Positions 13,945 to 48,842 are shown, counted from the stretch's first letter. The stretch: DNA of 64,000 nucleotides from an uncultured delta proteobacterium (GCA_963848135.1 CAWKCK010000005.1:434001-498000); one strand, 5' to 3'. Notes: a model not told the origin generated them from the sequence alone. A program made the numbers and translations.

Positions 13945-14004
13945 TTGGGAGTTTATGCTGTCCGTTTGCGAGAATAACCACGGGGGTAGAACAATCGACG
14001 GATA

Positions 14005-14982: not shown

Positions 14983-14999
14983 GATCAATGCTGAGAGCC

Positions 15000-15425: not shown

Positions 15426-15441
15426 TCGACCTTCCGCACAA

Positions 15442-15678
15442 TTACATTCCGCCAGTTGGCGGAACCAATGACACGCGGTCACCGTCTTTCAAAGGTTGAT
15501 TTAAACCCGAGATCTTGTGATTCAAGAAAACAATCTTTGCTTCTTCCTCTGTTATTCCGAAAGCATCCAGGATCTTGGACACCTTCTCGCCCTCGGTCAG
15601 TTCGATTGCCGTGGTTTCGTTGTGATTACATTCGTATTTTTCGGCTAACTTGCCGAAACATTTAATGTCTACTTTCAT
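15442..15678 (-). CDS. MoaD/ThiS family sulfur carrier
   Basis: 78-aa ubiquitin-like pattern ending LKDGDRVSLVPPTGGM. Confidence 0.85.
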   Translation of the reverse strand: MKVDIKCFGKLAEKYECNHNETTAIELTEGEKVSKILDAFGITEEEAKIVFLNHKISGLNQPLKDGDRVSLVPPTGGM

Positions 15679-15751
15679 TTTACTTCTCCTTGTAATTTAA
15701 GCAGTTTCTTTCACGGATAGCAACTGGAATAAATTGCTTTGGCATTTTAGA

Positions 15752-15916
15752 TTAAAGTCTGCAATTGTGTAAGACTCTCATGGCGTTACGAACCTCTTCA
15801 GGTGAGAGTATTCCGGCGGATAGGTATTTTTTGATCTCAGCCTCTGTTATATCGCCGTCACGCAAACCTATATCCGTGATGTCCTCGACACGACATTGAT
15901 CTGTTTTGATGGTCAT
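15752..15916 (-). CDS. Small hypothetical protein
   Basis: AGGGA RBS upstream; 54-aa ORF co-oriented with neighbours. Confidence 0.45.
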   Translation of the reverse strand: MTIKTDQCRVEDITDIGLRDGDITEAEIKKYLSAGILSPEEVRNAMRVLHNCRL

Positions 15917-15935
15917 TATCATTATTCCCTTATTT

Positions 15936-16115
15936 TTAGAAGCGATCGATAACATTAAGATTCCCCGAATACCGTCCTGCTGTCGACGCTTCCACACAGT
16001 TGTCGAGTTCCCACTCGGAAACCATGTGATTATCCGACACTGCTTTGATAGGGCAATAGTATTCTTCACCTGTTTCATTTTCAAACTTTCCGAACAGCTC
16101 GTTTTTTGTCTCCAT
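15936..16115 (-). CDS. Small hypothetical protein (59 aa, below ORF-track cutoff)
   Basis: AGGAGG RBS; METKNELFGKFENETGEEYYCP...NCVEASTAGRYSGNLNVIDRF*. Confidence 0.6.
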   Translation of the reverse strand: METKNELFGKFENETGEEYYCPIKAVSDNHMVSEWELDNCVEASTAGRYSGNLNVIDRF

Positions 16116-16250
16116 AAAGCAACCTCCTGTTGTTACAGACTATTGAGTAAAAACTTTAAGTGCATAGGTGATCAGAGAAATGTAAGAGTAAAATGGGCAT
16201 TGAGATGCCATGGGGCAATGCGAGCTGATTGACAGACTATTGAGGGTATA

Positions 16251-16371
16251 ATCCTATTGATCCGACACAGCATATAGGTCACACCCCGCAGGCATATTGA
16301 CGTATGTTGAGGACCAGAGACAAGGGCTCAACGCCGATATCGGGCGAAAAGATTTTTTGAGATGCCTTCTA
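16251..16371 (+). repeat. Palindromic intergenic repeat family A, partial copy
   Basis: Aligns by eye with the right part of 25181-25393 (CACAGCAT..GGTCA..CCCGCAGGCATA..GTATGT.GAGGAC.AGAGACAAGG..TCAACGCCGA..TTTTTTGAGA). Confidence 0.8.
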
Positions 16372-16703
16372 ATCTCCCATGACGGGTAAATCGCCTTGAC
16401 TGCGCCCAGGTGCACCTTCCTTGACAGCTATTCAGCGACTTATTACTGTCTTACCCTGGATGCCATGATCTTGAATCACAGTGCTCTTCAACCTCGGCTG
16501 CGGTCCGCAATGAGGCGTATCGTCCCTAAATTTTAATCAATATCACCGGAAGAAAAAATCTCTCTCATCATGGTGATGATGTTTTGCCGTGGTCAATCGT
16601 TCAATTGCACTCAGTGGCCGTAAAAAGCTCAGATTAGCTGTGTTCCACTCAAGAGGATGTTGAGCTGTACCTCTATTTTTTCAAAACTCCTAAGGACATT
16701 ACC

Positions 16704-17243
16704 ATGACATCACCAAGTAATTTACCAGAATCACGCATTGCCGAAATCATCGAAAGTCGCTCACCGGCCGGACAACAGGATGCCGTCCAGGGATGGCACA
16801 ACTTGCTTAAAAACCTTCTTAGTCAAATGGGTCCATATCTGCGAGACGGTCACCTGGTTACCTTTCGCACATTGAATGATCAGGAAAGAGTAGTCTTCGA
16901 ATATCTCCATCGTAAAATTAATGTGCCACCCTCCGCCAGCGCCCTATACATGCCGCCAAGTGTCCGTTATCAAATGCTGTACAACAGACCAGAGGGCCGC
17001 CTTCAAGCGCTGCCCGATCATTCTCCTGATAATCCGCCGGATGAAGGTATCGTTCTTGCCTGTCGCCAAGGCTTCCTCGATGTCGTTGTCAACGCTCTGC
17101 TGGCTAAACCCCCGTTTACACCAGCCATCGATGTTTATGACAACGGACAGCTTTTAGCTGGATATGTCTACAATACAATCGACGATTGTATCGGCGAACT
17201 GACGAAAGTCCTGCGGATCCATCTGCAACCGGGCACAGAATAG
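16704..17243 (+). CDS. Hypothetical protein
   Basis: 179-aa ORF with AAGGA RBS; no family recognised. Confidence 0.7.
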   Translation: MTSPSNLPESRIAEIIESRSPAGQQDAVQGWHNLLKNLLSQMGPYLRDGHLVTFRTLNDQERVVFEYLHRKINVPPSASALYMPPSVRYQMLYNRPEGRLQALPDHSPDNPPDEGIVLACRQGFLDVVVNALLAKPPFTPAIDVYDNGQLLAGYVYNTIDDCIGELTKVLRIHLQPGTE

Positions 17244-17621
17244 AATTGAGTAAGGAAGAAAAGGTAGGTCGATTGTATTGCGGCACCAGAAACTTTCTCA
17301 GTTAATAATGACCTTCGATCTTTATCCCCGAATTTTCTCATCCCTAATTTTGCGTTTTCCCCCGCTTAGGCTTTCCAGAATGGGGTTATCTTTAGTTAAT
17401 TAATGTTATTATAAGGAAATTTATAAAGTCAAACCACAAATTTATTGACTCTATCATCACATTTTCCTAATTACTAACATCGCTTGCGCCCAGAGTGCAA
17501 GCCTCGCAGATAAATTGGAATGGGCTAAGGATATAAAATCAGACCGCACAGAATGTTGATGACCTCATCCTATGTGCCGGCCGTTAGGTGCGACAAATCG
17601 ATAGACAAAGGAACGTAAAAA

Positions 17622-18461
17622 ATGTTGAAAGGCGAGATTAAGACAACTGTATTTCTATTAATAATTTTTATTTCTCTTTTTTTTGCGGCCCCGGTACCGG
17701 CAGAAAGCGGAAATTCATTGATGATGGCCACCACCACGAGCACCGACAACACCGGCTTGCTGGATTACCTGGCACCCAAATTTCAAAAAGCCACAGGCAT
17801 TAAGCTCAAATGGACGGCCACCGGTACCGGGAAAGCTTTGAAACTGGGCGAAAATTGCGATGTCGACATTCTCATGGTACATGCGCCAGCGGCTGAGAAA
17901 AAATTTGTTGCCGATGGTTTCGGAACCGATCGACGTGAAATCATGTACAACGATTTTGTCATCATCGGTCCCCAAATCGACCCGGTTGGAATAAAATCAC
18001 TACCGATCGCGGAGGCACTGCAAACAGTCAGGTCTAAAAAGGCTATCTTTGTCAGCCGCGGTGATAACTCTGGAACGCACAAAAAAGAAGTCTCTTTATG
18101 GAAAGCCGCCGGTATGCCGGTGCCGGAAAAGGAAAGCTGGTACGTTCAAACGGGCCAGGGAATGTTGGCGACAGTCAATATCGCTGCCGAACGGGACGGC
18201 TATACGATGGCCGATAGGGGAACCTACATCAAATACGAAGACAATTTGGGTGGTAACCCCCCACTTATGATCCTCGTGGAAGGCGATGCCGTTTTGCTGA
18301 ATCAGTATAGCGTGATCGCTATCGATGTGAAGCATTGCCCGAAAGCTAAAATTGAGCAAGCAACGCAGTTTATCGACTGGATCACAGGCCCTGACGCACA
18401 ATCTCAAATAAAAGATTTCAAGCTTCTGGGCAAGCCGCTGTTTACACCAAATACCAAGTGA
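17622..18461 (+). CDS. tupA: Tungstate ABC transporter substrate-binding protein
   Basis: Signal peptide; ATTTS tungstate motif, GTGKAL, FVSRGDNSGTH. Confidence 0.92.
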   Translation: MLKGEIKTTVFLLIIFISLFFAAPVPAESGNSLMMATTTSTDNTGLLDYLAPKFQKATGIKLKWTATGTGKALKLGENCDVDILMVHAPAAEKKFVADGFGTDRREIMYNDFVIIGPQIDPVGIKSLPIAEALQTVRSKKAIFVSRGDNSGTHKKEVSLWKAAGMPVPEKESWYVQTGQGMLATVNIAAERDGYTMADRGTYIKYEDNLGGNPPLMILVEGDAVLLNQYSVIAIDVKHCPKAKIEQATQFIDWITGPDAQSQIKDFKLLGKPLFTPNTK

Positions 18462-35302: not shown

Positions 35303-35376
35303 TTGGCTGGTATGAACTTAATACAATTATCAACCTGGCCGTGAACCCTCTTCGGTCTTACTTAAAAGGTAGTCAT

Positions 35377-36936
35377 ATGATGCGCCATCTGAATATAATT
35401 AAAATAATTAAATTTAGTAAGTTGAAGATAACGTGGATCGGAATCTATATGCTGGGGGCGATCGTCATTCTGCCTGCGCTGGGGTATGCTGATTTTGATC
35501 GAAATAATTTCCTCACAACCAGTACAAGTACTTTCGGTTACTTAAAAAATCCCGCACAAAAAGATTATTACTTTTATAACGCCTTTGCCGTCGAAACCGC
35601 ACTCATTGGACAAACAAAAGAAAAAGGAGTGCCCGAACAACTGTACGATGAAGAAATCGTCTTTGAAGAAAAATATATCCCTTCAGAAAAAATTGCGCAC
35701 CAGATAATGGAACAAGCCCTCGTGCTTTGTCAGATATCTCAGGAATACCGGCAAAAAAATGAACTTGATAAAGCCATCGAATTACTAGATCAGGCCTATT
35801 TACTTATACTGGGTATCAATACGTATGTGAGTGAAGACTTGATCCAGCAAAAAGAAGATTTGCGATTTATGATCTCAAAGCGCATCATCGAGATATATGC
35901 CTCCCGTGAGATCATTATAGACGGCAGCCAAAATGAAATACCGGTCGTTATAAACAAACAGGTCCAATACGAGGTAGACCTTTACACGAAGGGTGACCTA
36001 AGAAATCATTTCATTGCTTCGTACAGAAGATCAGGGAAGTACCGTCAGATGATTGTCGATCGGTTGAAAGAAGAAGGTCTTCCAGAAGAGCTCTCGTGGT
36101 TGCCGTTAATTGAGAGTGGATTTAGGGTCAAGGCGCTGTCAAAGTCCCGCGCTTTAGGTTTGTGGCAATTTATACCCTCGACAGGATACAGGTTCGGGCT
36201 CAGTCGCAACCGGTACATCGATGAGCGTTTAGATCCGGAGAAATCTACCCAGGCTGCGATTGGATATTTGAAAGAACTTCACAGTCACTTCGGAGATTGG
36301 GCCACTGCACTGGCAGCTTATAATTGTGGAGAAAACCGGGTTTTGAGAGTTATTCGCAATCAGAAAATTAACTATTTAGATAATTTCTGGGATCTCTATG
36401 CAACCTTGCCTCAGGAAACGGCGCGTTATGTGCCAAAATTTTTAGCAACATTGCACATTGTAAAAAACTTGGAAAAATATGGTCTGGATAAAATCGAGAT
36501 CGAACCCCCGTTAAAATTTGAATCCCTGGTAGTCGCAAAAAAGATTCACCTGAAAAGTGTCGCTCAAATTACAGGAATCGATAGAGACGACTTAGAAGAG
36601 CTTAACCCCGAACTTAGACAATACATTTTACCCGGTGGAAACTATCGGCTGAGGATACCCAGGGGAAAGAAGCAGTTACTGCTCGATGACCATGATCAGA
36701 TTCTGCGGCTGAATCCTGCACGTGTCAGTTTCCTCAAACACAGGGTGCAAACTGGGGAAACCTTGTCCTTGATTGCCCATCGCTACCGCACCAGTGTGTC
36801 AAACATAATGCTGGCAAACGATTTGCGCAGTGCAAACCATATCGTGACCGGTAAAACGCTCAAAATACCCCAAAAGAAGAAATCTTCCCAACAAAATGAA
36901 AATGCCAAATTGATAGTCGACAACAGCCAAGGTTAG
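35377..36936 (+). CDS. MltD-like lytic transglycosylase with LysM domain
   Basis: LPLIESG, ALGLWQFIPSTG, ALAAYNCGE, ETARYVPKF; C-terminal LysM HRVQTGETLSLIA; start uncertain. Confidence 0.9.
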   Translation: MMRHLNIIKIIKFSKLKITWIGIYMLGAIVILPALGYADFDRNNFLTTSTSTFGYLKNPAQKDYYFYNAFAVETALIGQTKEKGVPEQLYDEEIVFEEKYIPSEKIAHQIMEQALVLCQISQEYRQKNELDKAIELLDQAYLLILGINTYVSEDLIQQKEDLRFMISKRIIEIYASREIIIDGSQNEIPVVINKQVQYEVDLYTKGDLRNHFIASYRRSGKYRQMIVDRLKEEGLPEELSWLPLIESGFRVKALSKSRALGLWQFIPSTGYRFGLSRNRYIDERLDPEKSTQAAIGYLKELHSHFGDWATALAAYNCGENRVLRVIRNQKINYLDNFWDLYATLPQETARYVPKFLATLHIVKNLEKYGLDKIEIEPPLKFESLVVAKKIHLKSVAQITGIDRDDLEELNPELRQYILPGGNYRLRIPRGKKQLLLDDHDQILRLNPARVSFLKHRVQTGETLSLIAHRYRTSVSNIMLANDLRSANHIVTGKTLKIPQKKKSSQQNENAKLIVDNSQG

Positions 36937-37584: not shown

Positions 37585-38487
37585 ATGCCCAAGACATTGA
37601 CTAAACGAATCGGATGGGTGGCGTTCGGCCTGCTGGTATGGCTCACCTCCTCTGTACCGCTGTTCGGCAGTGCCACCGATATCTTGAAATACGACCTGCA
37701 ACAGGCGCGGGAGAAGCTGCATACGAACCTGGCCTTCAGAGACCGTATTGCCACGGAAATGAAAACGCTCGAGCAGTCCAACAATCCCGATCCCGGCACA
37801 GTCGCCGCTTATAGAGACTATTTGGACCAAGTGGATGCAATGGTGGCGCAGGACCGCAAATCGGTGGCTCAACTCGAGGCCCTGGTTGCCAAATATGATG
37901 CGCCTGCGGTATCATTGCCAATGGAATCGGGCGCTGACACCCAACAAACGCTGGACCCGAACATTCCCGAGGAGCAGGTCTCGGATGAAGTGGCCGCTTT
38001 AGACCGAAAATTGGATTCTTCCCTGGCAACTTTCGATTCCATGCTTCTGAAGGAGTTGGAGTTGATCCGTGCCAAGTCCACGGCTCGAATGCGGGACCTG
38101 ACTGAAGAAGCCGCCGCCGCCGCGGAGCGCCTAAAAGAAAAGGGTATCGATCTGGAATACGAATCCTCGTCTGGTTCCACTGAAACCGAAGATGACACCC
38201 AAAGACAGGATCGCTCTGAAAACTCAGAATCCTCCACCGATGAAGCTTCATCGTCCCAAGATGCCCGTACGGGAGAAAATCAGGTCGTCAAGGATCCGTC
38301 AGCACAACAGCAAACCGGTACGGGGGGAACCCCGCGGGACCGTGATGACCGTACTTCCGGCCAAGACGACGACATCGTCGCTCGGCAGCTGCGAGAAGCG
38401 GCCGAGAGAGAAACCGATCCGGAACTCAAAGCAAAACTTTGGAAAGAATATGAAGCGTACAAAAAAAACCGTAAGCAAATTGATTGA
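37585..38487 (+). CDS. Exported coiled-coil protein with acidic low-complexity linker and helical C-terminal motif
   Basis: Signal/TM helix; heptad-rich region; Ser/Glu/Asp tract; C-terminus DDDIVARQLREAAERETDPELKAKLWKEY. Confidence 0.8.
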   Translation: MPKTLTKRIGWVAFGLLVWLTSSVPLFGSATDILKYDLQQAREKLHTNLAFRDRIATEMKTLEQSNNPDPGTVAAYRDYLDQVDAMVAQDRKSVAQLEALVAKYDAPAVSLPMESGADTQQTLDPNIPEEQVSDEVAALDRKLDSSLATFDSMLLKELELIRAKSTARMRDLTEEAAAAAERLKEKGIDLEYESSSGSTETEDDTQRQDRSENSESSTDEASSSQDARTGENQVVKDPSAQQQTGTGGTPRDRDDRTSGQDDDIVARQLREAAERETDPELKAKLWKEYEAYKKNRKQID

Positions 38488-38506
38488 GTTTTCCTGCCAT
38501 GTTCCG

Positions 38507-39760
38507 ATGAATTTGTTGACCCGCCGTAAAAAGCGCATCCAGCCATTTTTTTTTCTGGTGGCAATAACCGTTCTCGTATTTCTCTCCGGTTGTGCCACGA
38601 CACTCCGCACACAAAAAGTCGTCCCTACCCAGATCCTACAGGCCCAGGAAGAAATTCCGGAAGATCAGCTGTTGGATGTCGGTATTCTTGTGTTTGACAC
38701 CAAAGAGATCACGGCAGAGTCCGCGGACAAGGAAAGAACGACGCCTGAGGTTCGAAAAGCGGAATCGAATTACATGCCCAACCACCTGAAAAACACACTG
38801 CAACAGAGCAGCCAGTGGGGAGCGGTGCGGGTTATTCCGAATGAGACCGCCAGCAATGATGTTGTGGTAAAAGGAAAAATCGTCAAATCTAACGGAGAGA
38901 AATTGGTGATGGAAGTTGAAATCATCGATGCCACCGGCACCGAATGGTTTCGAAAATCCTACGCCATGGGCGCCAATCGAGCAACGTACGCTAACACCCA
39001 AAAGGGAAAGAAAGACGCCTTTCAGGACTTGTACAACACGATTGCCAACGACATGGCAAATTACAAACAACGCCTGTCTCCAGAGGCGATTCTAAACATC
39101 CGAACGGTTTCTCAGTTGAAATTCGCGGAAGATTTCGCACCGGTTGCCTTTACCGGCTATTTGACCGTGGATAAAGGCGACAAGTTTACCATCACTCGCC
39201 TACCGGCCGATGACGATCCCATGGTGCGGCGATTACACAGAATAAGGGAAAGAGAATACATGTATGTGGATGTGCTCAACAATTACTACGAGGAATTTTA
39301 CAATGAAATGTGGTCGCCTTACGAAAATTGGCGTCATCTGAGTTTCGATGAGCTCGCAGCCATGAAGAAAATCAAGCGCGATGCTCTGCTGCGCCAACTG
39401 GCCGGTGCTTTAATGATCGCCGGAGCGGTTGCGCTGGGCGTCAGCGATATCGACAATACGGCCGTATTACAGACTGGAATGATCATTCTCGGTGGTCAGG
39501 TTCTCATCAACGGATTTAACATTTCCAAAGAGGCGCAAATTCACTCCGAAGCTATCAAGGAATTGAGCGAATCATTTGGAAGCGAGATGAAACCTGTGGT
39601 GATGGAGTTTGAAGGAAAACAATACGAATTGACCGGTTCCGCTCAAGAGCAGTTTGATGCCTGGCGAAAACTGTTGCGCCAGATTTACTATGCCGAGACT
39701 GGTTTTGGGCCGGATGGGTCCAGTGACCCGGAGAACCCGGCACTGTCGACCGATCCCTAA
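38507..39760 (+). CDS. Lipoprotein of unknown function
   Basis: Basic N-terminus, hydrophobic core, lipobox LSGC; late Gly/Ala-rich hydrophobic hairpin. Confidence 0.8.
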   Translation: MNLLTRRKKRIQPFFFLVAITVLVFLSGCATTLRTQKVVPTQILQAQEEIPEDQLLDVGILVFDTKEITAESADKERTTPEVRKAESNYMPNHLKNTLQQSSQWGAVRVIPNETASNDVVVKGKIVKSNGEKLVMEVEIIDATGTEWFRKSYAMGANRATYANTQKGKKDAFQDLYNTIANDMANYKQRLSPEAILNIRTVSQLKFAEDFAPVAFTGYLTVDKGDKFTITRLPADDDPMVRRLHRIREREYMYVDVLNNYYEEFYNEMWSPYENWRHLSFDELAAMKKIKRDALLRQLAGALMIAGAVALGVSDIDNTAVLQTGMIILGGQVLINGFNISKEAQIHSEAIKELSESFGSEMKPVVMEFEGKQYELTGSAQEQFDAWRKLLRQIYYAETGFGPDGSSDPENPALSTDP

Positions 39761-39858
39761 TCCGCATCATTCCACCGTATTTTTCATCCCTGCGGATAAG
39801 AAGATGACACGATACGTGTGAAAATACCCTGCTGGTAAACTTTGAAGGCGGTTTTATA

Positions 39859-39950
39859 GTGGATGTTAAAAATTCGTTCCGTTATTCGATTTTTTCCACC
39901 AACCTCTGATGCCATCCGTATTTCGGAATTTATTATCGAAAAGCGGTATA
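39859..39950 (-). repeat. Repeat family C, copy 2
   Basis: Reverse complement TATACCGCTTTTC..AATAAATTCCGAAATACGGA...TCGAATAACGGAACG..TTTTTAACATCCAC. Confidence 0.7.
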
Positions 39951-40034
39951 GTTATTTGATTGATGGCCCAGGATAATAGTCCACCGCTTGAACTCTTGAA
40001 ATAAATCTGGGAATAAGAAACGCGTCGGAAAATC

Positions 40035-41582
40035 ATGCCGCACCCATCGCGAAAAAAAGGCGCCTCGGAAAGGGCCGCCGCCGAAGTCATCGTTCCCCAG
40101 TCCATTCAAAGACCAAACAACTTGCCGGACCACCCTCCGCCTGGAAGACACCGCCATCGGATTGTTCCTTTGTTTGGCTTGATAGTGATGACTGTCATTG
40201 CACTGGGTGGATGGCTGCTGTACCACTTAAAAACCCACCCCAATATATCAGAACCGATGACCATCTCACCTGTCGCCAATGATAAAGGCAGCACGGTTCC
40301 ATCGGATTCGATAAACACCCCCACCGCTGGTCCGGGTTTAACCGAAACGCCAGAACAGGAGGTGGAGAAAACACAAACCGCACCGCACGCTGAACTATCT
40401 AAAATCGTATCGAACCTTGAGGACAAAGGCGTCGCCGAATGGGGCGAGCCGTTATACTCAGAAATGATCAGCCTGGTGCGGGAGGGTGACACGCTGCTTT
40501 CGCAAAACGCCGATATTGCCGCAAATGACCGTTACACTGCCGCCCTCGAAAAGGCCAACCGGCTAAAAAGTGGATCACCGGCAGCTCTGCAGCGATTCAT
40601 CGAAGAGGGACTGGCGGCACTGGCCAGAGGGAGCGGCCAGACAGCGCGGGACAAATTCCAAGCCGCCCTTTTGATAGACCCTGCCAACGCGGCTGCCCGC
40701 CGCGGCTTAGACAGAGCCGCACACGCCGAAACCGTGAAACGCCTCGTCGAATCGGGTACCAACCATGAGGGCGACAGAAAATACGCTTTGGCCCTGACCG
40801 ACTACGAGCAGGCATTGGCGCTGGATCCTGAAGCAGAGCAAGCGGTTACCGGTCGCAACCGGGTAACGGCAAGACTCGAACAAGAAAAGTTCAAGCAGCT
40901 GATGTCGGCGGGACTATCGGCTTTGAACCAAAGCGATCTACAGACGGCCCGATCCCGCCTGCTGGAGGCCAGCGTGATTCGACCGGATGATCGTGGAGTC
41001 GTCGATGCACTCGCACAGACGGATCAGGCCATGCGGCAGAAACGGATCGAGGCTCTGCACCGGACGGCCATTCGCGCCGAACAAGCGGAAGATTGGGAAC
41101 AGGCGTTGGTATCCTATCAAAATGTCCTAAAAGTGGACGGCAACATTCGCTTTGCCCTTCAGGGCGCAGCACGCTCTCAGGATTACATCCGTATAAACAA
41201 ACGGATCCGTTTTTTTCTCGAGAGGCCCACAGCTCTGGAAACCGATCGACAGCTTCAAAACGCGCTGTCTGTGCTCGATGAAACCGAGGGCTTAAAAACA
41301 AGGGGCCCTCAGTTGAACGCCCGCATCGATCAACTGAAAGCACTGGTTTTAGCGGCCCAGACACCGGTGCGCTTGATCATCGAGTCGGACAACTACACCG
41401 AGGTCGCCGTTTACAAGGTCGGAAAATTCGGTCGATTTACCGTTCGTGAGTTGATCCTCAGGCCAGGCACCTACACGGTGGTCGGTTCGCGGGAAGGCTA
41501 CCAGGATGTCAGAAAAACATTTCGGGCCGAACCCGGTCAGATACCTCAGCGCATATCAGTTATCTGCAAGGTCAAGGTGTAA
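40035..41582 (+). CDS. Membrane-anchored TPR-repeat protein with C-terminal PEGA-like beta domain
   Basis: One TM; TPR-like helices (ALLIDPANAAA, YEQALALDPE); C-terminal LRPGTYTVVGSREGYQD. Confidence 0.8.
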   Translation: MPHPSRKKGASERAAAEVIVPQSIQRPNNLPDHPPPGRHRHRIVPLFGLIVMTVIALGGWLLYHLKTHPNISEPMTISPVANDKGSTVPSDSINTPTAGPGLTETPEQEVEKTQTAPHAELSKIVSNLEDKGVAEWGEPLYSEMISLVREGDTLLSQNADIAANDRYTAALEKANRLKSGSPAALQRFIEEGLAALARGSGQTARDKFQAALLIDPANAAARRGLDRAAHAETVKRLVESGTNHEGDRKYALALTDYEQALALDPEAEQAVTGRNRVTARLEQEKFKQLMSAGLSALNQSDLQTARSRLLEASVIRPDDRGVVDALAQTDQAMRQKRIEALHRTAIRAEQAEDWEQALVSYQNVLKVDGNIRFALQGAARSQDYIRINKRIRFFLERPTALETDRQLQNALSVLDETEGLKTRGPQLNARIDQLKALVLAAQTPVRLIIESDNYTEVAVYKVGKFGRFTVRELILRPGTYTVVGSREGYQDVRKTFRAEPGQIPQRISVICKVKV

Positions 41583-41593
41583 GTATAGCGCAT

Positions 41594-43696
41594 ATGGTCG
41601 ACAAGCCTAATGATAAGCGGTCACCCGCCGCCGAAACTATCACGCCGATTCCTTATCGTCCCGCAGTCCGAAATCGCCGCATCCTCCCCGGAATCTCATT
41701 GAAATGGTTGATCGGGGCCAGCCTGGTGATGGTTCTTTGCGGTCTCGTTGCAATTGCCGCCGTCGTTTTTACGGCCCGTCAGGTAATAATTCAGATCGAA
41801 CCGACACCGGTCGATATTTCCATCCGCGGTCGCCTTTTTACCGCGCGCTACGGTGACCATTATCTGATGCGGCCTGGAGAATATACCATTCAGGCCACCA
41901 AACCGTGTTATACTCCGCTCGAGGCCCAGTTGGTCGTCGGTTCAGAAAAACGCCAGCACTTTCGCATGACATTACAAAAACTTCCCGGTAAGATTTCGGT
42001 ACGGGTTCACCCGCAGGGCGCCCCTAATGAAGAGATTCGAGCCGCTCGGGTTTACCTTGACGGTGAAGAAGTGGGGTACAGCCCGCTCATTGAACTGGCA
42101 GCTTCGACCGGCGTCCGCCAGATAGATGTTCAGTCCGAACGTTACCAAGATTATCATGGTACGGTGACCATCGAGGGCTGCGGGCAACACCAGGAATTGA
42201 ATCTGGCACTGACACCCGGGTGGTCCGACGTCGTGATCAGCTCTGTTCCTGCAGGAGCACTCGTAATGGTTGACGGCGCGCAAGTCGGCGAAACGCCAGT
42301 AACGCTGGAACTTCCGGAAGGAACCCATGAGGTGCAATTGACCGCCGAGCGCCATAAAACGTGGCAAACGCGACTGGTGACAGAAGCTGGTGTTCCCATG
42401 GAACTCAGCGGTATTCGGCTGGCACCGGCTGACGGTAAATTGGTGCTAAAAAGCTCACCTGCAGGAGCGCGGGTGATGATCGGAGATCGGTATATCGGTC
42501 AAACCCCTCTTGAGGTGACCCTCACGCCCGCAATTCCCCATGTTGTTCATCTTTCGAAGACTGGTTATAAAGATGCTGCCCGCAAGGTTCAAATTGAAAC
42601 TGACGCTGAACAGACGATGGAGGTCCGCCTGGAAGCGGTCAAAGGACTGGTCCACTTTTCCATTCAACCGGCAGGGGCCGAACTGCTAATAAACGGCCGA
42701 TCAATGGGAAAAGTACCCCAGCAGTTGCGTCTCCTATCCACGGTCCAATCGATTGAAATCCGGAAAAAAGGATATCAACCCTATCGAGCCCGCATCACGC
42801 CCCAACCCGGATTTCCCCAGGAAATCAAGGCCGTTTTGAAAGCGCTCACGCCATCGGCAACCTCATCACAAGAAATTGTAAAAGCGCGCAACGGGTATGC
42901 CTTGAAACTCGTTCGGCCCGGTTCGTTCGTGATGGGATCTTCCCGCGGGCAACAGGGACGTCGTGCGAATGAAACCCTACGAAAAATCAAACTGGAACGC
43001 CCCTTTTACATGGGTATCACGGAAGTCACGAACCGCGAATTCAAAGAATTTTTGGCCGATCACGACTCGGGTGTCATAAAATCCATCAACCTGAACACTG
43101 ATGAGTTGCCGGCGGTACAGATCTCATGGGAACAAGCGGCCCTGTTCTGCAATTGGCTGAGTGCCAGAGAATCTCTGCCAGCGGCATATGTCCTGAGAGA
43201 CGATAAACTGGTGGCTGCCGAACCCATGACCACCGGATATCGCCTGCCCTCCGAAGCGGAGTGGGAATACTGTGCCCGTTATACCCCCAGCGGCGTTAAA
43301 CTCAAATATCCGTGGGGCGCCAAGTTTCCACCGAAACCGATGTCCGGTAATTTTGCCGACGTTTCCGCACAAGCCCTGCTGTCAAATACAATTGATGGTT
43401 ACGACGACGGATACCCGGCGGCTGCACCCTCAGGAAAATTTCCGGCCAACGCTCTCGGGTTCCGCGATATGGGCGGCAACGTGGCCGAATGGTGCAACGA
43501 CTACTACGACATTTACAGTTACAATGCCGATAAGGTGGTCACGGATCCTACCGGACCCAAGGACGGCTCATTGCGCGTCGTCAGAGGCTCCAGCTGGCGA
43601 CATGCCAGTATCAGCTCCCTGCGGCTGACATACAGGGACTATAGCAACACCAAACGTCCGGATTTGGGTTTTCGAATCTGCCGGTATGCAAAATAG
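41594..43696 (+). CDS. Membrane-anchored PEGA-repeat protein with C-terminal FGE/SUMF1-fold domain
   Basis: TM; repeats S.P.GA.V.VDG..VG.TP; F.MGS, TEVTN, YRLPSEAEWEY, DMGGNVAEW, GFRI. Confidence 0.9.
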   Translation: MVDKPNDKRSPAAETITPIPYRPAVRNRRILPGISLKWLIGASLVMVLCGLVAIAAVVFTARQVIIQIEPTPVDISIRGRLFTARYGDHYLMRPGEYTIQATKPCYTPLEAQLVVGSEKRQHFRMTLQKLPGKISVRVHPQGAPNEEIRAARVYLDGEEVGYSPLIELAASTGVRQIDVQSERYQDYHGTVTIEGCGQHQELNLALTPGWSDVVISSVPAGALVMVDGAQVGETPVTLELPEGTHEVQLTAERHKTWQTRLVTEAGVPMELSGIRLAPADGKLVLKSSPAGARVMIGDRYIGQTPLEVTLTPAIPHVVHLSKTGYKDAARKVQIETDAEQTMEVRLEAVKGLVHFSIQPAGAELLINGRSMGKVPQQLRLLSTVQSIEIRKKGYQPYRARITPQPGFPQEIKAVLKALTPSATSSQEIVKARNGYALKLVRPGSFVMGSSRGQQGRRANETLRKIKLERPFYMGITEVTNREFKEFLADHDSGVIKSINLNTDELPAVQISWEQAALFCNWLSARESLPAAYVLRDDKLVAAEPMTTGYRLPSEAEWEYCARYTPSGVKLKYPWGAKFPPKPMSGNFADVSAQALLSNTIDGYDDGYPAAAPSGKFPANALGFRDMGGNVAEWCNDYYDIYSYNADKVVTDPTGPKDGSLRVVRGSSWRHASISSLRLTYRDYSNTKRPDLGFRICRYAK

Positions 43697-43708
43697 AGGA
43701 TAGATGGA

Positions 43709-44062
43709 ATGGCACGTTGGACCCTCATATTCTGGGCCGTTTTCGTTCTGCAGTTGACCCAAGCCCGGGAATACAGCGATGTAAGTGTTTATTTCCTCTA
43801 TCCTTTGTCCGGTCGAATGGATCGGCTGGTGACATCGATCGATCGGCCGTTATCATTTCAACTGACGGAAATCGACGACAGCGGTCCGCCCAAAGACCAG
43901 GTGCCGGTCGCAGGCCCGGAGATGGAAAATCTTGCACCGCCACCGGAGAAAAAACCCCAATCAGGTAACGGGCGGCGCGACCGGCAGGTGCCCTTGAAAC
44001 CAGCACGCCCATCTGAGGAAATCAAAGCGGATCAAGCGGTCGATTTTCCTTATGACATATAG
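43709..44062 (+). CDS. Small exported Pro-rich protein
   Basis: Signal peptide, Pro-rich linker, C-terminal PSEEIKADQAVDFPYDI. Confidence 0.7.
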   Translation: MARWTLIFWAVFVLQLTQAREYSDVSVYFLYPLSGRMDRLVTSIDRPLSFQLTEIDDSGPPKDQVPVAGPEMENLAPPPEKKPQSGNGRRDRQVPLKPARPSEEIKADQAVDFPYDI

Positions 44063-44075
44063 GTCCGAAATCATT

Positions 44076-44176
44076 TATACCATTTTTCAGAAACAAATTC
44101 CGAATTTCGGAAGGGTGGTATTAGTGATTTTAGGAAAAAACGTTCGAATAACGGGATGTTTTTTGATGACAACCAT
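44076..44176 (+). repeat. Repeat family C, copy 3
   Basis: TATACCATTTTTC...AAATTCCGAATTTCGGAAGGGTGGTAT...TCGAATAACGG..GTTTTTTGA..ACAACCAT. Confidence 0.75.
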
Positions 44177-44237
44177 ATGATCAGCGGATGAAGCTCGAGA
44201 CCTAATAAACGATTACCCTGCGCAATGGACGTCAACC

Positions 44238-45041
44238 ATGAGAAAAAGCTTTCCAATTTCGTTTGAATTCGCCTACCAGCTATTTGCCCTGATACTGATC
44301 GTCATCGTTGTACATGCGGTCTATATTGGAATCATCCGCCCCAAAGCCAACACGATTTTGGCCCAACAGGCGGCGATGGCAAAAACGGATGCCACTCAGA
44401 CCACTGAAAGATCGGTCTATGTCCTTGTCCGCGATTACGAGCAGGAGGCTTGTTTCATTTTACTGTTCTGGGCGCTGGCGATCATGCTTTACAAAGGGAT
44501 CACGACAAGCCGAAATCGGGCGTTGCTGCAAAAAGACCTGCTCCCGCTGGCCGAAGGCGACCGCATTCTGCCGGAAGACACCCGCGAGTTGGCCCGAAAA
44601 ATCCAGGCCTTGCCGAATCCCCAGCGCCATGCGCTCCTCCCGCGTGCCCTACTGGCGGGTCTGCAGCGATTCCGCACCACCCGCAACATCCAGGATGTTG
44701 CCAGCGCCACGCATGCCTACTGCATGGCAGAGGGGGAGCGGTTGGAATCCGAGCTTTCCATGATCCGTTACATCGCCTGGGCCATTCCATCGATCGGTTT
44801 TATCGGAACGGTTAGGGGTATTGGCGATGCTCTGGGCCAAGCCCACAAAGCCATCGAAGGTGATATCTTTGGTGTGGTTCAAAGCCTGGGGGTCGCCTTC
44901 AACTCCACCTTGATTGCACTGTTATTGAGCATTGTTCTCATGTTCATGCTTCATCAGTTGGAGCTGCTGCAGGAACGCTATGTTTCGGAAACTGACGCGT
45001 ACTGCGAGGAGAAACTGACGAGCCACCTGCATGCGGCATAA
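44238..45041 (+). CDS. MotA/TolQ/ExbB ion-channel family protein
   Basis: Four hydrophobic segments; AIPSIGFIGTVRGI and LGVAFNSTLIALL match the family TM hairpin. Confidence 0.9.
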   Translation: MRKSFPISFEFAYQLFALILIVIVVHAVYIGIIRPKANTILAQQAAMAKTDATQTTERSVYVLVRDYEQEACFILLFWALAIMLYKGITTSRNRALLQKDLLPLAEGDRILPEDTRELARKIQALPNPQRHALLPRALLAGLQRFRTTRNIQDVASATHAYCMAEGERLESELSMIRYIAWAIPSIGFIGTVRGIGDALGQAHKAIEGDIFGVVQSLGVAFNSTLIALLLSIVLMFMLHQLELLQERYVSETDAYCEEKLTSHLHAA

Positions 45042-45152
45042 CCGCACTTGTGTCGCACCAACCAGTTATTGTTTGGCATGATGGCAGCATATTCCGGCCA
45101 TCAATCGCACGGATGCCAAATATAAAGCCTGCATAAGGCAAAGGTCGATACC

Positions 45153-46571
45153 ATGGCGTTATTATCTATTGAACTCAGTGATGCCGGCATCTTGGCGGCG
45201 GGTCATCAGCCGCCGCAACTGCTGGCAGTCGATGGACCGGAAACCGAAAGTCCCGGCTTTGCGCTGCCGCAAAAAAATGGGCTTGTGGTGGGCCAGGCTG
45301 CGGCAAATCAAGCCCGGCTTCAGCCCCAAAAGGTCCAGCACCGCTTCTGGGATCAATTGAGCACCGACCCGCTTAAACCGACCCAGCGCTTTGCGGGAAA
45401 CCATGCGGAGATGGCTTTTTCTCATCTGGCCCACGTATGGGAAAAAATCAAACCGCATGGGAACGAGGTCATTATCACCGTTCCGGCCTTTTACAGCCGT
45501 CATCAACTCGGACTCCTGCTCGGCATGACACAGGAATTATCCATCCCGATCAAAGGTCTCGTCATCCAGGCGGTGGCAGCAGTACCGCGTCCTTATCCGG
45601 GGAGCCATTTGTTTTTCATAGATGTGCACCTACACAAAACTGAGGTGACTCTTTTCGAACAGGACGAGCAACTACGCCTTGAAAAAACGGTGACCCTGGA
45701 CGAATGGGGGCTTATCCACCTTTACCGTATCTGGGCCGAAACGATGGCTGAAGAATTCGTACGAACCACACGCTTCGATCCGCTGCATGATGCCGTCAGC
45801 GAACAGGCCCTCTACGATCGAATGCCGGAAACACTGAACCGCCTGTTGAATGATGCAACTGCGACCATAGAACTGCGTGCCGGCGCCGCCGTCCACCGGG
45901 TGGCTCTGAACCGGGATCTTATCGTTCGACAGACCGCTTCTTATATTGACCGGGTACGCGACACCATCCGTTCGGTAATCGAACAAGCCCGCCGGCCGCA
46001 GGGTAAAGTAACGGCCTTGATGAACCATCGATTCGCCCGATTACCCGGAGCGGCGACAATAATGTCCGGTTTTGATCATCCGTACCGGGTTGAACTGGAG
46101 AACGGCGCAAGTGCCCTGAACATACTACAGATCTGGGACCAGTTTGATTTTCCGACAAGCGGACACGGCGCTGCTTTTTTCACCAGCCGGCCATGGCAAC
46201 CGGTCGATACAGCCGATTCGCTGCAGAGCGAGCCGGTAAAATCGACAGTGAGACGCCCCACCCACCTGCTCCATAACAATTTGGGCTATCCTCTCTCCGA
46301 CACACCTCTTTTTATCGGGAAGAAAGACAGCGCCGCGGGTGGCAGGGTTCTGATCGGTCTTGGATCGTCAGAAGCCAATCCCCAGCAGTGCGCCGTCCAT
46401 CGAGTGGGTGAAGAGGTTGTTTTAACGGTTATCGAAAAGGGACAAATTTTTATCGACGACCAACTGCTGAAGAGCGATAGCACGGTTTTGAACCTCGGCC
46501 AAACCCTTCGCGTGGGAACATCCGGGGAGAACATTCGGGTAATTGCCTGTCTGAATGCCGATGAAACGTAA
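45153..46571 (+). CDS. Degenerate Hsp70/actin-like ATPase-fold protein with C-terminal FHA-like domain
   Basis: SIELSDAG, VVGQAA, VIITVPAFY, AVAA, FIDVH follow Hsp70 NBD order; C-terminal PLFIG...IFIDD...LNLGQTLRVG. Confidence 0.6.
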   Translation: MALLSIELSDAGILAAGHQPPQLLAVDGPETESPGFALPQKNGLVVGQAAANQARLQPQKVQHRFWDQLSTDPLKPTQRFAGNHAEMAFSHLAHVWEKIKPHGNEVIITVPAFYSRHQLGLLLGMTQELSIPIKGLVIQAVAAVPRPYPGSHLFFIDVHLHKTEVTLFEQDEQLRLEKTVTLDEWGLIHLYRIWAETMAEEFVRTTRFDPLHDAVSEQALYDRMPETLNRLLNDATATIELRAGAAVHRVALNRDLIVRQTASYIDRVRDTIRSVIEQARRPQGKVTALMNHRFARLPGAATIMSGFDHPYRVELENGASALNILQIWDQFDFPTSGHGAAFFTSRPWQPVDTADSLQSEPVKSTVRRPTHLLHNNLGYPLSDTPLFIGKKDSAAGGRVLIGLGSSEANPQQCAVHRVGEEVVLTVIEKGQIFIDDQLLKSDSTVLNLGQTLRVGTSGENIRVIACLNADET

Positions 46572-47655
46572 AAAAAGAATAAATGTCTTCAGCCTGTCGT
46601 TTCTCGATTGTATCTCCTGTGGATTGGGTGCAATCATTCTCTTATTCGTGATCATCAACGCCAAGAGTACAGCCCAGCAAGAGAGAGTTACTTCGGATTT
46701 GAAAGCCGAGTCCTCACGGCTGGAAGAATTGGTGCAAGAAGGCCGCAAGAACCTCGTCGCTTTGACAAACACCCTTGAAGAAACAACCGCTCAGATTACA
46801 TCCACTCAGGGGCGGTCCCGGGAGGTGATCGAGACCCTCAGCCCGAAAAAGATTGAATTGGACGATAAAGACAAAGACACCCTTGCCCGCAAAGAGCACC
46901 TAAACAAACTGAAAGCCGATGTCCTTGCCCTGGATGAGGAACTTAAACGGCTTAGGGCTGGCGCCAACACAGAGGATGAACGCGGATCCCGCCTGCGGCC
47001 TTTTCCGGGACAGGGAGACCGACAATACCTCACGGATCTAAAGATGGGCGGGAATCGGATCTTGATCCTCGTGGACGCTTCGGCCAGCATGCTGGATGAA
47101 ACCATCCTCGGAATCATTCGCCGACGGAACCAAAACAAACAGGTGAAGGTCGACGCACCAAAATGGCGACGGGTCGTCGCCACAATCGAGTGGTTGATCA
47201 CTCAGCTTCCCCGGACGGGAAAATATCAGTTGTACGTCTTTAACGAAACCGCTCGGCCGGTCATTGCCGGTACCGGTGGCACCTGGCTCGATACCGGAGA
47301 TGTCGAACGTCTGAACCTGACCATCGATCGATTGCGTCGGGTGGTGCCCGCGAAGGGCACGAGCCTGCTCAATGCTTTCGGGGTCATCAAAGAAATGAGT
47401 CCAAAACCGGATAACATCTTTTTACTGACAGACAGCCTCCCGACGATGGGTGCCGACAAGCCATGGGGCAACCGGGTTTCCGCAAATAAGCGATTGAAGT
47501 TGTTTCGAGAGGCCGCCCGCCAAGTGCCGTCTATGATCCCGGTCAACATTATTCTCTATCCAATGGAGGGCGACCCGATGGCCGCCGACGCCTATTGGCG
47601 ATTGGCGAAAAATACCCGGGGATCCTTCTTCTGCCCTTCAAAGGACTGGCCATAA
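46561..47655 (+). CDS. TM-coiled-coil-vWA domain protein 1
   Basis: FSLSFLDCISCGLGAIILLF TM; coiled coil; MIDAS DASAS; FLLTDSLP. Confidence 0.85.
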   Translation: MKRKKRINVFSLSFLDCISCGLGAIILLFVIINAKSTAQQERVTSDLKAESSRLEELVQEGRKNLVALTNTLEETTAQITSTQGRSREVIETLSPKKIELDDKDKDTLARKEHLNKLKADVLALDEELKRLRAGANTEDERGSRLRPFPGQGDRQYLTDLKMGGNRILILVDASASMLDETILGIIRRRNQNKQVKVDAPKWRRVVATIEWLITQLPRTGKYQLYVFNETARPVIAGTGGTWLDTGDVERLNLTIDRLRRVVPAKGTSLLNAFGVIKEMSPKPDNIFLLTDSLPTMGADKPWGNRVSANKRLKLFREAARQVPSMIPVNIILYPMEGDPMAADAYWRLAKNTRGSFFCPSKDWP

Positions 47656-47721
47656 CCACAACACTGGCAAGGTGAGGTGCCGGTTTGCCGCTAACACGGT
47701 CACCGACCCTGGCCTGTTATG

Positions 47722-47819
47722 GTGGTTGTCAAAAAACGTTCCGTTATTCGAGTGTTTTCTGCACCAACTACTTTTACTGCCCTTCCGTACTGTGGAATTT
47801 ATTTTATAAAAACGGTATA
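47722..47819 (-). repeat. Repeat family C, copy 4
   Basis: Reverse complement TATACCGTTTTT..AAATAAATTCC..TACGGAAGGG...CACTCGAATAACGGAACGTTTTTTGACAACCAC. Confidence 0.75.
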
Positions 47820-47837
47820 AAAAAGTATAAAACGCCT

Positions 47838-48842
47838 ATGAAGACGTCCCGTCGCCAACGTACCGAACTTTTCAGTTTATCTTTTCTGGACTGCATTTGC
47901 TGCGCTTTTGGAGCCATCATTCTGCTGTTCGTCCTGTCTAAGTTCGCCGAGCCGGTCGTCATAGAAAAATTGCGTGAAGACCTCGATGCGGAAATCATCC
48001 GGTTGGAGCAGGAACGGGTCGAAATTCAGGGACAGACGGTCATATTGAACAGGGAATTAACGGCCAAACAGGAACAGCTATCCGAAGAAGAAACGAAGCT
48101 TGCGCGTCTTCAAGGCGATTTGTCGTCAATCGAAGGGCAGTTCGCCACAACTAAAGATGATGCCGAGGTCCAGAACATCATTGAAGGTAAACTGGCGCAG
48201 GCCAAACAGGAACTCACTGCAGAGATGAGGCGGCTCTTGCGACGCCAACCGCCTGAAGCGGTGAGCCGCGTGGGAGGCATTCCGGTGGACAGTGAATACA
48301 TCATTTTCATCATCGACACCTCTGGAAGCATGCAACGTAATGCCTGGGCGCTGGTTCAAAAAAAGATGCGGGAGACCTTAAATATCTATCCTCAGGTAAA
48401 GGGAATTCAGGTCATGAACGACATGGGAGAGTATATGTTCTCTCAGTATCGGGGCCAATGGATTCCAGACAGTCCCGCCCGGCGCCGGGCTATCCTTTCA
48501 CGGCTGGCCGGTTGGCGGGCGTTCAGCAACAGCAGTCCCGTGGAAGGTATAACAGCGGCCATTCGCACGTTTTATTCCCAGGACAAAAAGATCAGCCTGT
48601 ATATTTTTGGTGACGAATTCAGCGGGAATGCTATTCAACCGGTTGTCGATGAAGTCGAACGCTTGAATCGGGCCGGTGCCGGCGGCACCCGCCGGGTCCG
48701 CATCCATGCCGTCGGTTTCCCGGTCGTGATGAATTTCACTGACAAGGGCGGAAATACGGGGGAGCGCTTCGCTGCGCTCATGCGGGTGTTGTGCCAACGC
48801 AATGGGGGCACATTTGTGGGTTTGAACAATACTCGCCCATAA
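47838..48842 (+). CDS. TM-coiled-coil-vWA domain protein 2
   Basis: FSLSFLDCICCAFGAIILLF TM; coiled coil; MIDAS DTSGS; IFGDE, IHAVGFP. Confidence 0.85.
   Translation: MKTSRRQRTELFSLSFLDCICCAFGAIILLFVLSKFAEPVVIEKLREDLDAEIIRLEQERVEIQGQTVILNRELTAKQEQLSEEETKLARLQGDLSSIEGQFATTKDDAEVQNIIEGKLAQAKQELTAEMRRLLRRQPPEAVSRVGGIPVDSEYIIFIIDTSGSMQRNAWALVQKKMRETLNIYPQVKGIQVMNDMGEYMFSQYRGQWIPDSPARRRAILSRLAGWRAFSNSSPVEGITAAIRTFYSQDKKISLYIFGDEFSGNAIQPVVDEVERLNRAGAGGTRRVRIHAVGFPVVMNFTDKGGNTGERFAALMRVLCQRNGGTFVGLNNTRP

Follow-up and report, generated by a model that had tools for sequence, protein, structure and literature searches.

To our knowledge, the MotA/ExbB-type 5:2 motors that have been studied each drive an envelope process of their own, namely flagella, Ton, Tol, gliding, type 9 secretion, or Zorya. 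The GldLM motor is of the 5:2 type as well, and its dimeric subunit spans the periplasm, where it meets an FGE-fold (formylglycine-generating enzyme) protein in the GldK/GldN ring. Zorya consists of a ZorA with a long tail, a ZorB with a peptidoglycan-binding domain, and ZorC/D or another effector, and a signal passing inward from the MotAB-like channel is the logic that was proposed for it. Here, we describe an operon of nine co-oriented genes (g1 to g9, 37585-48842, plus strand) in a 64,000-nucleotide stretch of DNA from an uncultured delta proteobacterium (GCA_963848135.1, CAWKCK010000005.1:434001-498000; this whole stretch is called the window in the following). The nine genes probably build one proton- (or ion-) driven trans-envelope motor of the MotA/ExbB 5:2 type. 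The operon would then encode a further motor of this kind, with an unprecedented axle (a coiled coil combined with a vWA domain that carries a metal-ion-dependent adhesion site, MIDAS) and a fixed set of seven partner genes.

The core of this operon has a counterpart in the literature. A computational study (Mol Biol Evol 2025; PMC12204202) predicted two vWA families, the second of which has a core of a TolQ-like protein and paired transmembrane (TM)-vWA proteins ('TPH-vWA'). According to its text, AlphaFold3 5:2 models place two Asp residues inside a Thr ring, the function is stated as unknown, and gliding is suggested for the other vWA transducer family, one with tolR genes. As far as the family is described there, our locus shares the features that were tested: a tolQ-like gene adjoining the vWA genes with no tolR, exbD, or motB; TM-tethered vWA proteins that form a heterologous pair; and a conserved Asp in a TolR-like trans-pore helix together with a Thr ring in the channel. 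A range centered on Proteobacteria and the Planctomycetes-Verrucomicrobia-Chlamydiae group is also shared. The identity with that family, whose seed comes from Idiomarina, rests on these shared features and not on an alignment; the name Idiomarina was absent from the 120 matches listed with the g8 homologue of locus L047 as query, among which only Halieaceae-type proteins were found, and from the 80 loci discussed below. The main text of the paper does not mention the six other genes, and the words PEGA, sulfatase, and Hsp70 do not appear in it (0 instances each). In a full-text literature search, only this paper was found for the core (its supplement, which was outside the search, may show neighboring genes), and neither the full set of nine genes nor the Hsp70-fold/FHA partner, the fold of the lipoprotein, or the docking motifs turned up in print. 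Going by sequence features, the three-gene core thus appears to be in print already as a prediction, and the nine-gene machine would be the new part. An eLife paper from 2020 on conflict systems was rejected as a match, as the MoxR-vWA/GTPase systems in its available text are without a MotA-type gene. The first-pass annotation of this DNA had taken the cluster for an uncharacterized machine that matches none of the flagellar, Ton/Tol, Myxococcus Agl gliding, and Zorya systems. The cluster does lack the defining features of flagellar MotAB, Ton, Tol-Pal, Zorya, and GldLM with its type 9 secretion system (T9SS), but its core is not without a counterpart in print, as it is contained in PMC12204202.

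The motor core

The product of g6 (44238-45041; 267 amino acids, aa) is a channel subunit of the MotA/TolQ/ExbB family and a putative pentamer. It matches MotA_ExbB in Pfam (PF01618, E 2e-13) and TolQ in NCBIfam (1.3e-5). When a g6 profile was compared with PDB sequences, TolQ was the sole MotA/ExbB-family match (E 5.9e-4, positions 147-256), and in the alignment of TM2 and TM3, T191 and T224 fall on the Thr positions of the TolQ GTV and ATA motifs. All sequences compared (30/30) keep T191 within IGFIGTVRGIG and S223/T224 within AFNST, and the mean column identity of g6 across phyla amounts to 64%. As judged from these alignments, g6 is a very divergent MotA/TolQ/ExbB-family protein in which both pore-lining Thr positions are kept. 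An acidic (R)DxEQE motif at residues 66-70 (D66, E68, Q69, and E70 invariant in 30/30 sequences) precedes the second hydrophobic segment and would lie at the periplasmic mouth of the channel if the N-terminus of g6 is cytoplasmic.

The two proposed axle subunits, A and B, are encoded by g8 (46555-47655) and g9 (47838-48842), which are full-length paralogues (hhalign probability 99.8%, E 1.9e-27, 314 columns). Both are predicted to consist of a trans-pore helix, a coiled coil, and a vWA domain, and g8 ends in an invariant DWP. Their N-termini start with basic residues followed by FSLSFLDC…, and a TM segment was located at residues 16-34 of g8 by a hydropathy scan. The invariant residues of g8, both in 38 diverse sequences (31-51% identity) and in 35 locus sequences, include F16, D18, G23, G25, S176, and D293; in g9, the SFLD motif with D18 is invariant in 30/30 sequences and the DTSGSM MIDAS motif is nearly so. 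The full DxSxS…D MIDAS motif is conserved in both proteins, whose mean column identity across phyla is 56% each. Pfam VWA_2 was matched by the window g8 with an E of 5.2e-4, below the Pfam cut-off, and by 35/35 family members at E<=0.01, while only two weak coiled-coil-type matches (E about 0.005-0.008) were obtained for the window g9. For positions 43-154 of the g8 profile, the PDB matches were coiled coils only (~100 residues), and no ExbD, TolR, or vWA entry was among the matches listed.

The genome's own TolR-like protein (…PFVDVMLVLL…), ExbD (…SLMDIFTIL…), and MotB (…TFGDLMSLLL…) carry an Asp at the g8/g9 position, at the start of the TM helix. By this comparison, g8 and g9 are the stand-ins for ExbD/TolR/MotB and supply the Asp-bearing trans-pore helix. 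The earlier claim that canonical ExbD, TolR, and MotB are absent from the cluster is correct, none of these families having been matched, but it overlooks this helix with its invariant Asp.

TolQR-TolA-TolB-Pal and ExbBD-TonB resemble the operon in that an inner-membrane MotA/ExbB channel is combined with a partner that has an Asp-bearing TM helix, and in the trans-envelope reach to a lipoprotein; a TPR protein in the operon is a further shared feature (CpoB in tol-pal). Unlike in Tol and Ton, the periplasmic part of the partner is here a coiled coil with a vWA domain instead of an ExbD/TolR domain, and the cluster is without a TolA/TonB-type third subunit, TolB, a Pal/OmpA domain, or a TonB-dependent receptor. 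TonB, TolA, TolB, Pal, ExbD (PF02472), and OmpA families were not matched by any of the nine proteins in Pfam and NCBIfam, in agreement with what had been said of TonB, TolA/B, and Pal before. A flagellar MotAB/PomAB stator was rejected too, as there is no MotB-type plug or OmpA-like domain and g8 and g9 are built from a coiled coil and vWA. The genome has canonical TolQR-like, ExbB-ExbD-ExbD, and MotAB units elsewhere. It contains five MotA/ExbB-family loci in all, and its three ExbD-family matches lie on contigs C9 and C2, none in the cluster. The four other units (C9:68800-70400, C2:390000-395100, C3:203600-205600; L091-L094) comprise a TolQ-like and TolR-like pair, an ExbB with two ExbD, an ExbB-like gene that precedes an OmpA-type lipoprotein and is near-identical to the genome's other ExbB, and a canonical MotA-MotB pair on contig C3.

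Conservation and distribution of the nine genes

In other phyla, every gene has homologues (phmmer, E 1e-8 to 1e-189), which are arranged as in the window. Relatives of g8 were scanned in one genome per species, which gave at least 597 stretches, 595 of them confirmed; this count may include both g8 and g9 of one operon. The best 80 of these stretches, i.e., the closest relatives, were taken as loci (L011-L090), and gene counts were made by phmmer searches of the window proteins against six-frame open reading frames (ORFs) in the 47 loci whose sequence extends 9.3 kb or more upstream of g8. Homologues of g3, g4, g6, and g9 were each present in 47/47 loci, as were g8 and g9 together alongside g6; g2 was found in 46/47 and g1 and g7 each in 45/47. 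For g5, whose largely low-complexity sequence escapes such searches, phmmer gave a match in only 3/47 loci; in 62/62 loci that have both flanks, however, the space between g4 and g6 holds an ORF with F.PSEEIS.D..VSFPVDI at its end. Gene order and strand are kept in 44/47 loci, so that a neighborhood check of the kind once suggested for this cluster came out in its favor. In a Myxococcales metagenome-assembled genome (MAG; L015), g1-g4 are inverted and lie downstream of g9 (12127-18274, minus strand), so that the operon can evidently come apart into two blocks, g1-g4(g5) and g6-g9.

The 80 loci belong mostly to Gammaproteobacteria (Woeseiaceae, Halieaceae, Steroidobacteraceae, and Pseudomonadales), and the remainder includes Kiritimatiellia, Myxococcales, Desulfuromonadales, a 'Deltaproteobacteria' MAG, and Vicinamibacteria. 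At the protein level, the g8 family has at least 6736 members at E<=1e-3 among 8000 candidates scored, and 1499 clusters (50% identity) were obtained at the same threshold, 281 of them with E<=1e-30. Named copies among the matches listed are called 'VWA domain-containing protein', 'hypothetical protein', or carry a generic mislabel only.

Among 41 relatives of the window genome, g8 was detected in 7, g2 in 8, and full-length g7 in 8. The union of the carriers comprises 9 relatives, 6 of which have all three genes; the other 32 have none of them, although six gave weak matches (E 7.9e-8 to 7.3e-4) confined to the FHA portion of the g7 profile. For the partial carriers G009 and G022 the matches lie at or a few kb from contig ends, and for G016 the g2 region was not located. 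The g8 operon occurs in 4/15 other genomes of the genus, and g8 was found at E<=1e-30 in 9/401 genomes of an even phylum sample, the window's own genome counted. On the strength of these sequence searches, the nine-gene arrangement is far beyond chance, and the nine genes are one conserved unit that is present or absent together. Their patchy presence and co-occurrence indicate an accessory module that moves as a whole. A divergent g8 relative (G149:C1:3005534-3006589; E 2.9e-69 vs 1e-126 to 1e-155 for the others) was observed in a near-complete genome (two contigs) from the same phylum and could show a variant architecture.

This distribution bears on whether the operon might be a Zorya-like anti-phage system, in which the MotAB-like unit would sense infection. 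The patchy range and the occurrence in several phyla, which fits horizontal spread, would be in line with defence, as would a weak ZorA match of g6 (5.9e-4, residues 161-257; PADLOC), and Zorya likewise places a non-flagellar MotA-family channel in an accessory, patchily distributed operon. We nevertheless consider defence very unlikely. Apart from coiled-coil noise, the nine proteins matched no ZorB, ZorC, ZorD, or other PADLOC model, the operon lacks a nuclease or any other effector, and conservation is unusually high for g6, g8, and g9. The neighbors of the window operon are housekeeping genes, and among 120 random ORFs drawn from the flanks of 61 loci, 11 matched generic PADLOC models (SspA/DndA-like 2, mads_2 5, mads_3/8 2 with AriA on one, and RT-protease 1) that form no coherent system. 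On this flank sample a defence-island context was rejected. Zorya itself was rejected as well, as g6 with its 267 aa has no ZorA tail, the ZorB peptidoglycan-binding domain and ZorC/D are missing, and no other Zor model was matched.

Partner proteins and the proposed machine

Among the partner proteins, g4 (41594-43696) is a bitopic inner-membrane protein with a TM segment at residues 40-58, followed in order by one weak CarboxypepD_reg-like module, four PEGA modules (E 1.9e-52, 4 stretches), and a C-terminal FGE-sulfatase fold at residues 439-696 (E 6.3e-44; Pfam). Catalytic formylglycine-generating enzymes have a conserved catalytic Cys pair. In the g4 FGE domain, none of the columns that are invariant or nearly so in 35 sequences is a Cys; the domain thus does not qualify as a catalytic one and is, from its alignment, probably a binding module. 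The FGE-fold domain of TagR has likewise been argued to be a non-enzymatic binding module in the accessible part of PMC13713981.

Lipoprotein g2 (38507-39760, 417 aa) has a lipobox Cys that is invariant in 30/30 sequences. Its AlphaFold2 model (predicted local distance difference test score, pLDDT, of 80.7) contains an alpha/beta domain at residues 40-190 that resembles PelC, FlgT, and the TolB N-domain, and beyond this domain a helical hairpin of 75 + 43 residues with a Gly-rich hydrophobic tip. In structural comparisons by VIA-align, the best scores were obtained with the LPHT-ring chain 8z5n (Z 10.1, root-mean-square deviation [rmsd] 4.9, 174 aligned), PelC 5t10 (Z 9.2, rmsd 2.3, 108 aligned), the TolB N-domain 7mx5 (Z 8.7, rmsd 2.7, 101 aligned), and the curli complex 6lqh (Z 8.6, rmsd 3.5, 121 aligned); because these Z values are middling for the aligner, the likeness is one of fold class and not a family assignment. 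Foldseek matches were weak (E 1.8e-4 to 1e-2), and in a protein atlas g2 was found in unnamed 'hypothetical protein' clusters only.

These two proteins raise the question of whether the motor powers gliding, surface adhesion, or export, as in GldLM/T9SS or AglRQS/Glt. The FGE fold of g4 is that of GldK/PorK and GldJ (NCBIfam GldK/PorK E 3.3e-34, GldJ 8.1e-12), g2 resembles PelC and CsgG-type export-ring lipoproteins, and the operon as read below would share with GldLM a 5:2-type motor and a periplasm-spanning dimer that meets an FGE-fold protein under the outer membrane. Gliding has also been suggested in the text of PMC12204202 for the other vWA transducer family. The GldK score of g4, however, is far below the cut-off (118.9 vs 350 bits), and g4 is anchored by an inner-membrane TM helix with PEGA modules and has no lipobox, so that it was rejected as GldK/PorK. 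Furthermore, g6 belongs to the MotA/ExbB family and not to GldL, no GldL, GldM, GldN, or Sov gene is present, and no secretin, barrel, adhesin, glycosyltransferase, or cargo gene was found in the operon or conserved beside it. According to the hydropathy scan, the vWA heads are anchored in the inner membrane and not exposed on the surface. Motility or secretion is therefore an improbable task for this motor.

Three further proteins may connect the parts. The bitopic inner-membrane protein g3 (40035-41582) has a TM segment at residues 43-61, periplasmic TPR repeats (TPR_2, E 7.2e-9), and a C-terminal beta-sandwich block with a weak CarboxypepD_reg match at residues 461-503, in which S451, D452, T455, G466, L475, G478, Y480, G484, and D491 are invariant (35 sequences). 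g1 (37585-38487) is an exported, mostly low-complexity acidic protein with a signal-like N-terminal hydrophobic segment at residues 9-27; outside the low-complexity part, its C-terminal motif of ~40 residues, DDDIVARQLREAA..E.DPEL..KLW.EY..YK, is invariant or nearly so in 25 sequences. The small exported protein g5 (43709-44062) likewise combines an N-terminus that appears signal-like upon inspection, a low-complexity linker, and the conserved C-terminal peptide F.PSEEIS.D..VSFPVDI-COOH, with the window copy ending in RPSEEIKADQAVDFPYDI. Complex prediction of g5 with the periplasmic part of g3, the g4 FGE domain, and the g8 vWA domain gave a score of 0.23 (mark 0.32), which has no bearing either way on binding.

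On the cytoplasmic side, g7 (45153-46571) combines an Hsp70 nucleotide-binding domain (NBD; actin-like ATPase) fold with a C-terminal FHA-type beta-sandwich, and no hydrophobic segment of any kind was detected in it. In the AlphaFold2 model (pLDDT 90.4, 32-sequence alignment), residues 1-350 adopt the Hsp70 NBD fold (Foldseek DnaK/Hsp70 E 1e-19 to 1e-17; TM-score on the target, TMt, 0.70-0.76 and rmsd about 4 A with NBD-only targets). The C-terminal part is an FHA-type sandwich and not an Hsp70 substrate-binding domain; Pfam FHA was matched in 12/32 family members (best 4.5e-14), the window protein not among them. In DnaK, the phosphate-2 loop is the Gly-rich DLGGGT. The g7 family has the consensus HLDLxLH / D-x-x-L-H (D-V-H-L-H) at this place. 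An Hsp70 chaperone was rejected for g7, as the NBD fold is present while the Gly-rich phosphate-2 loop and the substrate-binding domain are not. Between g6 and g8, g7 was not found in the shorter loci L022, L033, and L084 either, which adds to L028 and L049 among the full loci (phmmer); these five g7-less loci come from Desulfuromonadales, a 'Deltaproteobacteria' MAG, and two Gammaproteobacteria. The FHA part is missing from the g7 of L011 (8949-9998) and L041 (7448-8482), which are Kiritimatiellia and Vicinamibacteria copies. Because of these five absences and two FHA-less copies, g7 and its FHA domain are regarded as optional. In L049, extra space at the g7 position holds repetitive DNA only.

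A further explanation would make the operon a sensor that detects outer-membrane or peptidoglycan damage or contact, with g2/g4 reporting to the vWA heads and thereby un-plugging or stalling the g6/g8/g9 channel, so that the signal reaches g7, as in the logic proposed for Zorya, or the ion flux simply changes. The strongly conserved cytoplasmic loops of g6 (family alignment) and the nearly invariant g7 surface motif RFDPLH.A..EQ (family alignment) would fit this. So would a comparison with TagQ/TagR/PpkA/Fha1 of the Pseudomonas aeruginosa H1 type VI secretion system (T6SS), described in the available text of PMC13713981 and PMC3224232 as one chain of an outer-membrane lipoprotein, a periplasmic FGE fold, an inner-membrane-anchored periplasmic vWA domain, and a cytoplasmic FHA domain; the operon has the same four domain types in these compartments. 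As far as that chain is described there, the operon differs from it in that the vWA domain is joined to the trans-pore helix of a motor and not to a Ser/Thr kinase, and in that a kinase, a phosphatase, the TagS/T ABC transporter, and a T6SS are missing from the cluster; g2 and TagQ are compared only as outer-membrane lipoproteins. We consider a sensor rather unlikely, since the operon has no kinase, phosphatase, or other output enzyme (Pfam, NCBIfam), the FHA phosphopeptide-binding motif is degenerate in the window g7, and g7 is missing from some loci while g1-g5 are constant, which points to a periplasmic task.

In the machine that we propose instead, one g8 and one g9 would form a dimeric axle within a g6 pentamer, and ion flow via the Asp/Thr site would turn the axle against this pentamer. 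The coiled coil, ~15 nm when extended, would convey the motion to two vWA heads. Judging from the lengths, these heads and the FGE head of g4, which would be raised on ~five beta-sandwich modules to the same level, may both reach ~15-20 nm above the inner membrane, which would bring them near the outer-membrane lipoprotein g2 of the ring-forming PelC/FlgT/TolB-N type. The TPR protein g3 and the disordered g1 and g5 could join the parts via conserved terminal peptides. The heights and neighbors of the heads suggest that the motor either performs work on a scaffold beneath the outer membrane or senses its state; this scaffold would consist of the PEGA-FGE protein g4, the TPR protein g3, the PelC/FlgT-like lipoprotein g2, and the disordered adaptors g1 and g5, while g7 would act on the cytoplasmic face as regulator or output that is dispensable in some lineages. 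By analogy, the geometry resembles that of GldLM on the GldK/N ring, and the domain content that of TagQ-TagR-PpkA-Fha1. We rank energized envelope tethering or remodeling, or outer-membrane surveillance, ahead of motility, secretion, and defence.

Several points weigh against this motor. Its target is a guess, because the operon encodes neither a peptidoglycan-binding domain nor an outer-membrane barrel, a substrate, or an effector. The similarity of g6 to the solved TolQ is weak (E 5.9e-4), and so is the vWA call for g9, with Pfam VWA matched in 6/30 family members and not in the window protein. The 5:2 stoichiometry and the g8-g9 heterodimer are suggested by analogy and by published models. 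From its sequence, ATPase activity of g7 appears doubtful because the Hsp70 phosphate-2 loop is replaced, and g7 was not found in 2/47 full loci. Finally, the conservation counts cover the closest 80 of at least 595 stretches.

It is possible, if somewhat doubtful, that the operon represents a distinct class of ion-driven machine, in which the axle of ExbD/MotB type has become a heterodimeric coiled coil with two integrin-like MIDAS heads that grip, turn, or release an FGE-fold/lipoprotein assembly beneath the outer membrane. Such a machine could be a motorized counterpart of the TagQ/TagR sensor of outer-membrane damage or a proteobacterial version of the GldLM-GldKN gear, and g7 would couple the state of the motor to the cell interior. 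The operon is common in sediment and marine bacteria (at least 595 stretches), and its function is directly testable, as there is a full parts list, conserved docking peptides in g1 and g5, and cultured hosts, which include Congregibacter variabilis, Pseudohalioglobus sediminis, Biformimicrobium ophioploci, Pseudohaliea rubra, Chromatocurvus halotolerans, Parahaliea mediterranea, and Kineobactrum salinum. Its study could reveal by what means a rotary stator and an adhesion-type domain are coupled.

Gene calls, surroundings, and repeats

ORF calling showed that nine co-oriented plus-strand ORFs fill the region, and the domain types given for them in the first-pass annotation were confirmed by Pfam, structure models, and hydropathy. 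Two starts were corrected on the basis of homologue lengths: that of g2 from 38192 to 38507, giving the lipobox LSGC, and that of g9 from 47685 to 47838, giving 334 aa vs a homologue median of 332 aa. The hydropathy scan located a single N-terminal TM segment each in g3, g4, g8, and g9 and signal-type hydrophobic segments in g1 and g2. In Pfam, nothing was found for g1, g2, g5, and g7 of the window, and g1 was also without an NCBIfam match. A scan of the region gave 21 promoter-like sites vs 10.2 expected and 19 terminator-like sites vs 15.6 expected, none convincing enough to delimit transcription units, and an Rfam search of the region gave no match. The runs listed as containing parts of the stretch were sediment-metagenome DNA runs only, with no RNA run among them.

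The neighbors in the window are genes for a major facilitator superfamily transporter, MltD, an FMN reductase, and transglutaminase-like, metallo-beta-lactamase-fold, and DCC1-like proteins. The MltD-like gene (SLT + LysM; NCBIfam MltD-like) does lie upstream, at 35341-36936, as had been noted before, but the suggested link of this transglycosylase to the cluster was not borne out: by phmmer a homologue was near the cluster in 0/47 loci, and the gene is therefore not part of the unit. Downstream of g9, other genes were observed in related loci, namely a plus-strand gene for an OmpA-family protein with a Gly-zipper segment in 16 loci (e.g., L023:12202-12975) and genes for two unknown proteins of ~235 aa and an M48 peptidase in 22-27/55 loci (L014:11313-13558, L013:4156-4860). 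These genes mark gammaproteobacterial subsets and have no equivalent in the window; they may reflect lineage synteny or be optional parts, for example, a peptidoglycan anchor.

A dispersed repeat of ~100-130 nt with the core CGTTCCGTTATTCGA was found at 39840-39970, at 44074-44177 (opposite orientation), and at 47718-47821, and its copies occupy the three widest gaps of the operon (g2-g3, g5-g6, and g8-g9). No Rfam match was found for the repeat. Of the three copies, the one at 44070-44200 folds with a z of -2.77, and folding of the others does not exceed that of shuffled sequences. Complementarity between the two best copies amounts to 74% over 104 nt, and the core occurs 46 times in the genome at <=1 mismatch (reversed control 0). 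From these sequence properties, the repeat is probably an element resembling repetitive extragenic palindromes or miniature inverted-repeat transposable elements (REP/MITE-like), and its presence explains the greater width of these gaps here compared with the g8-g9 gap of ~0-40 bp in most related loci.

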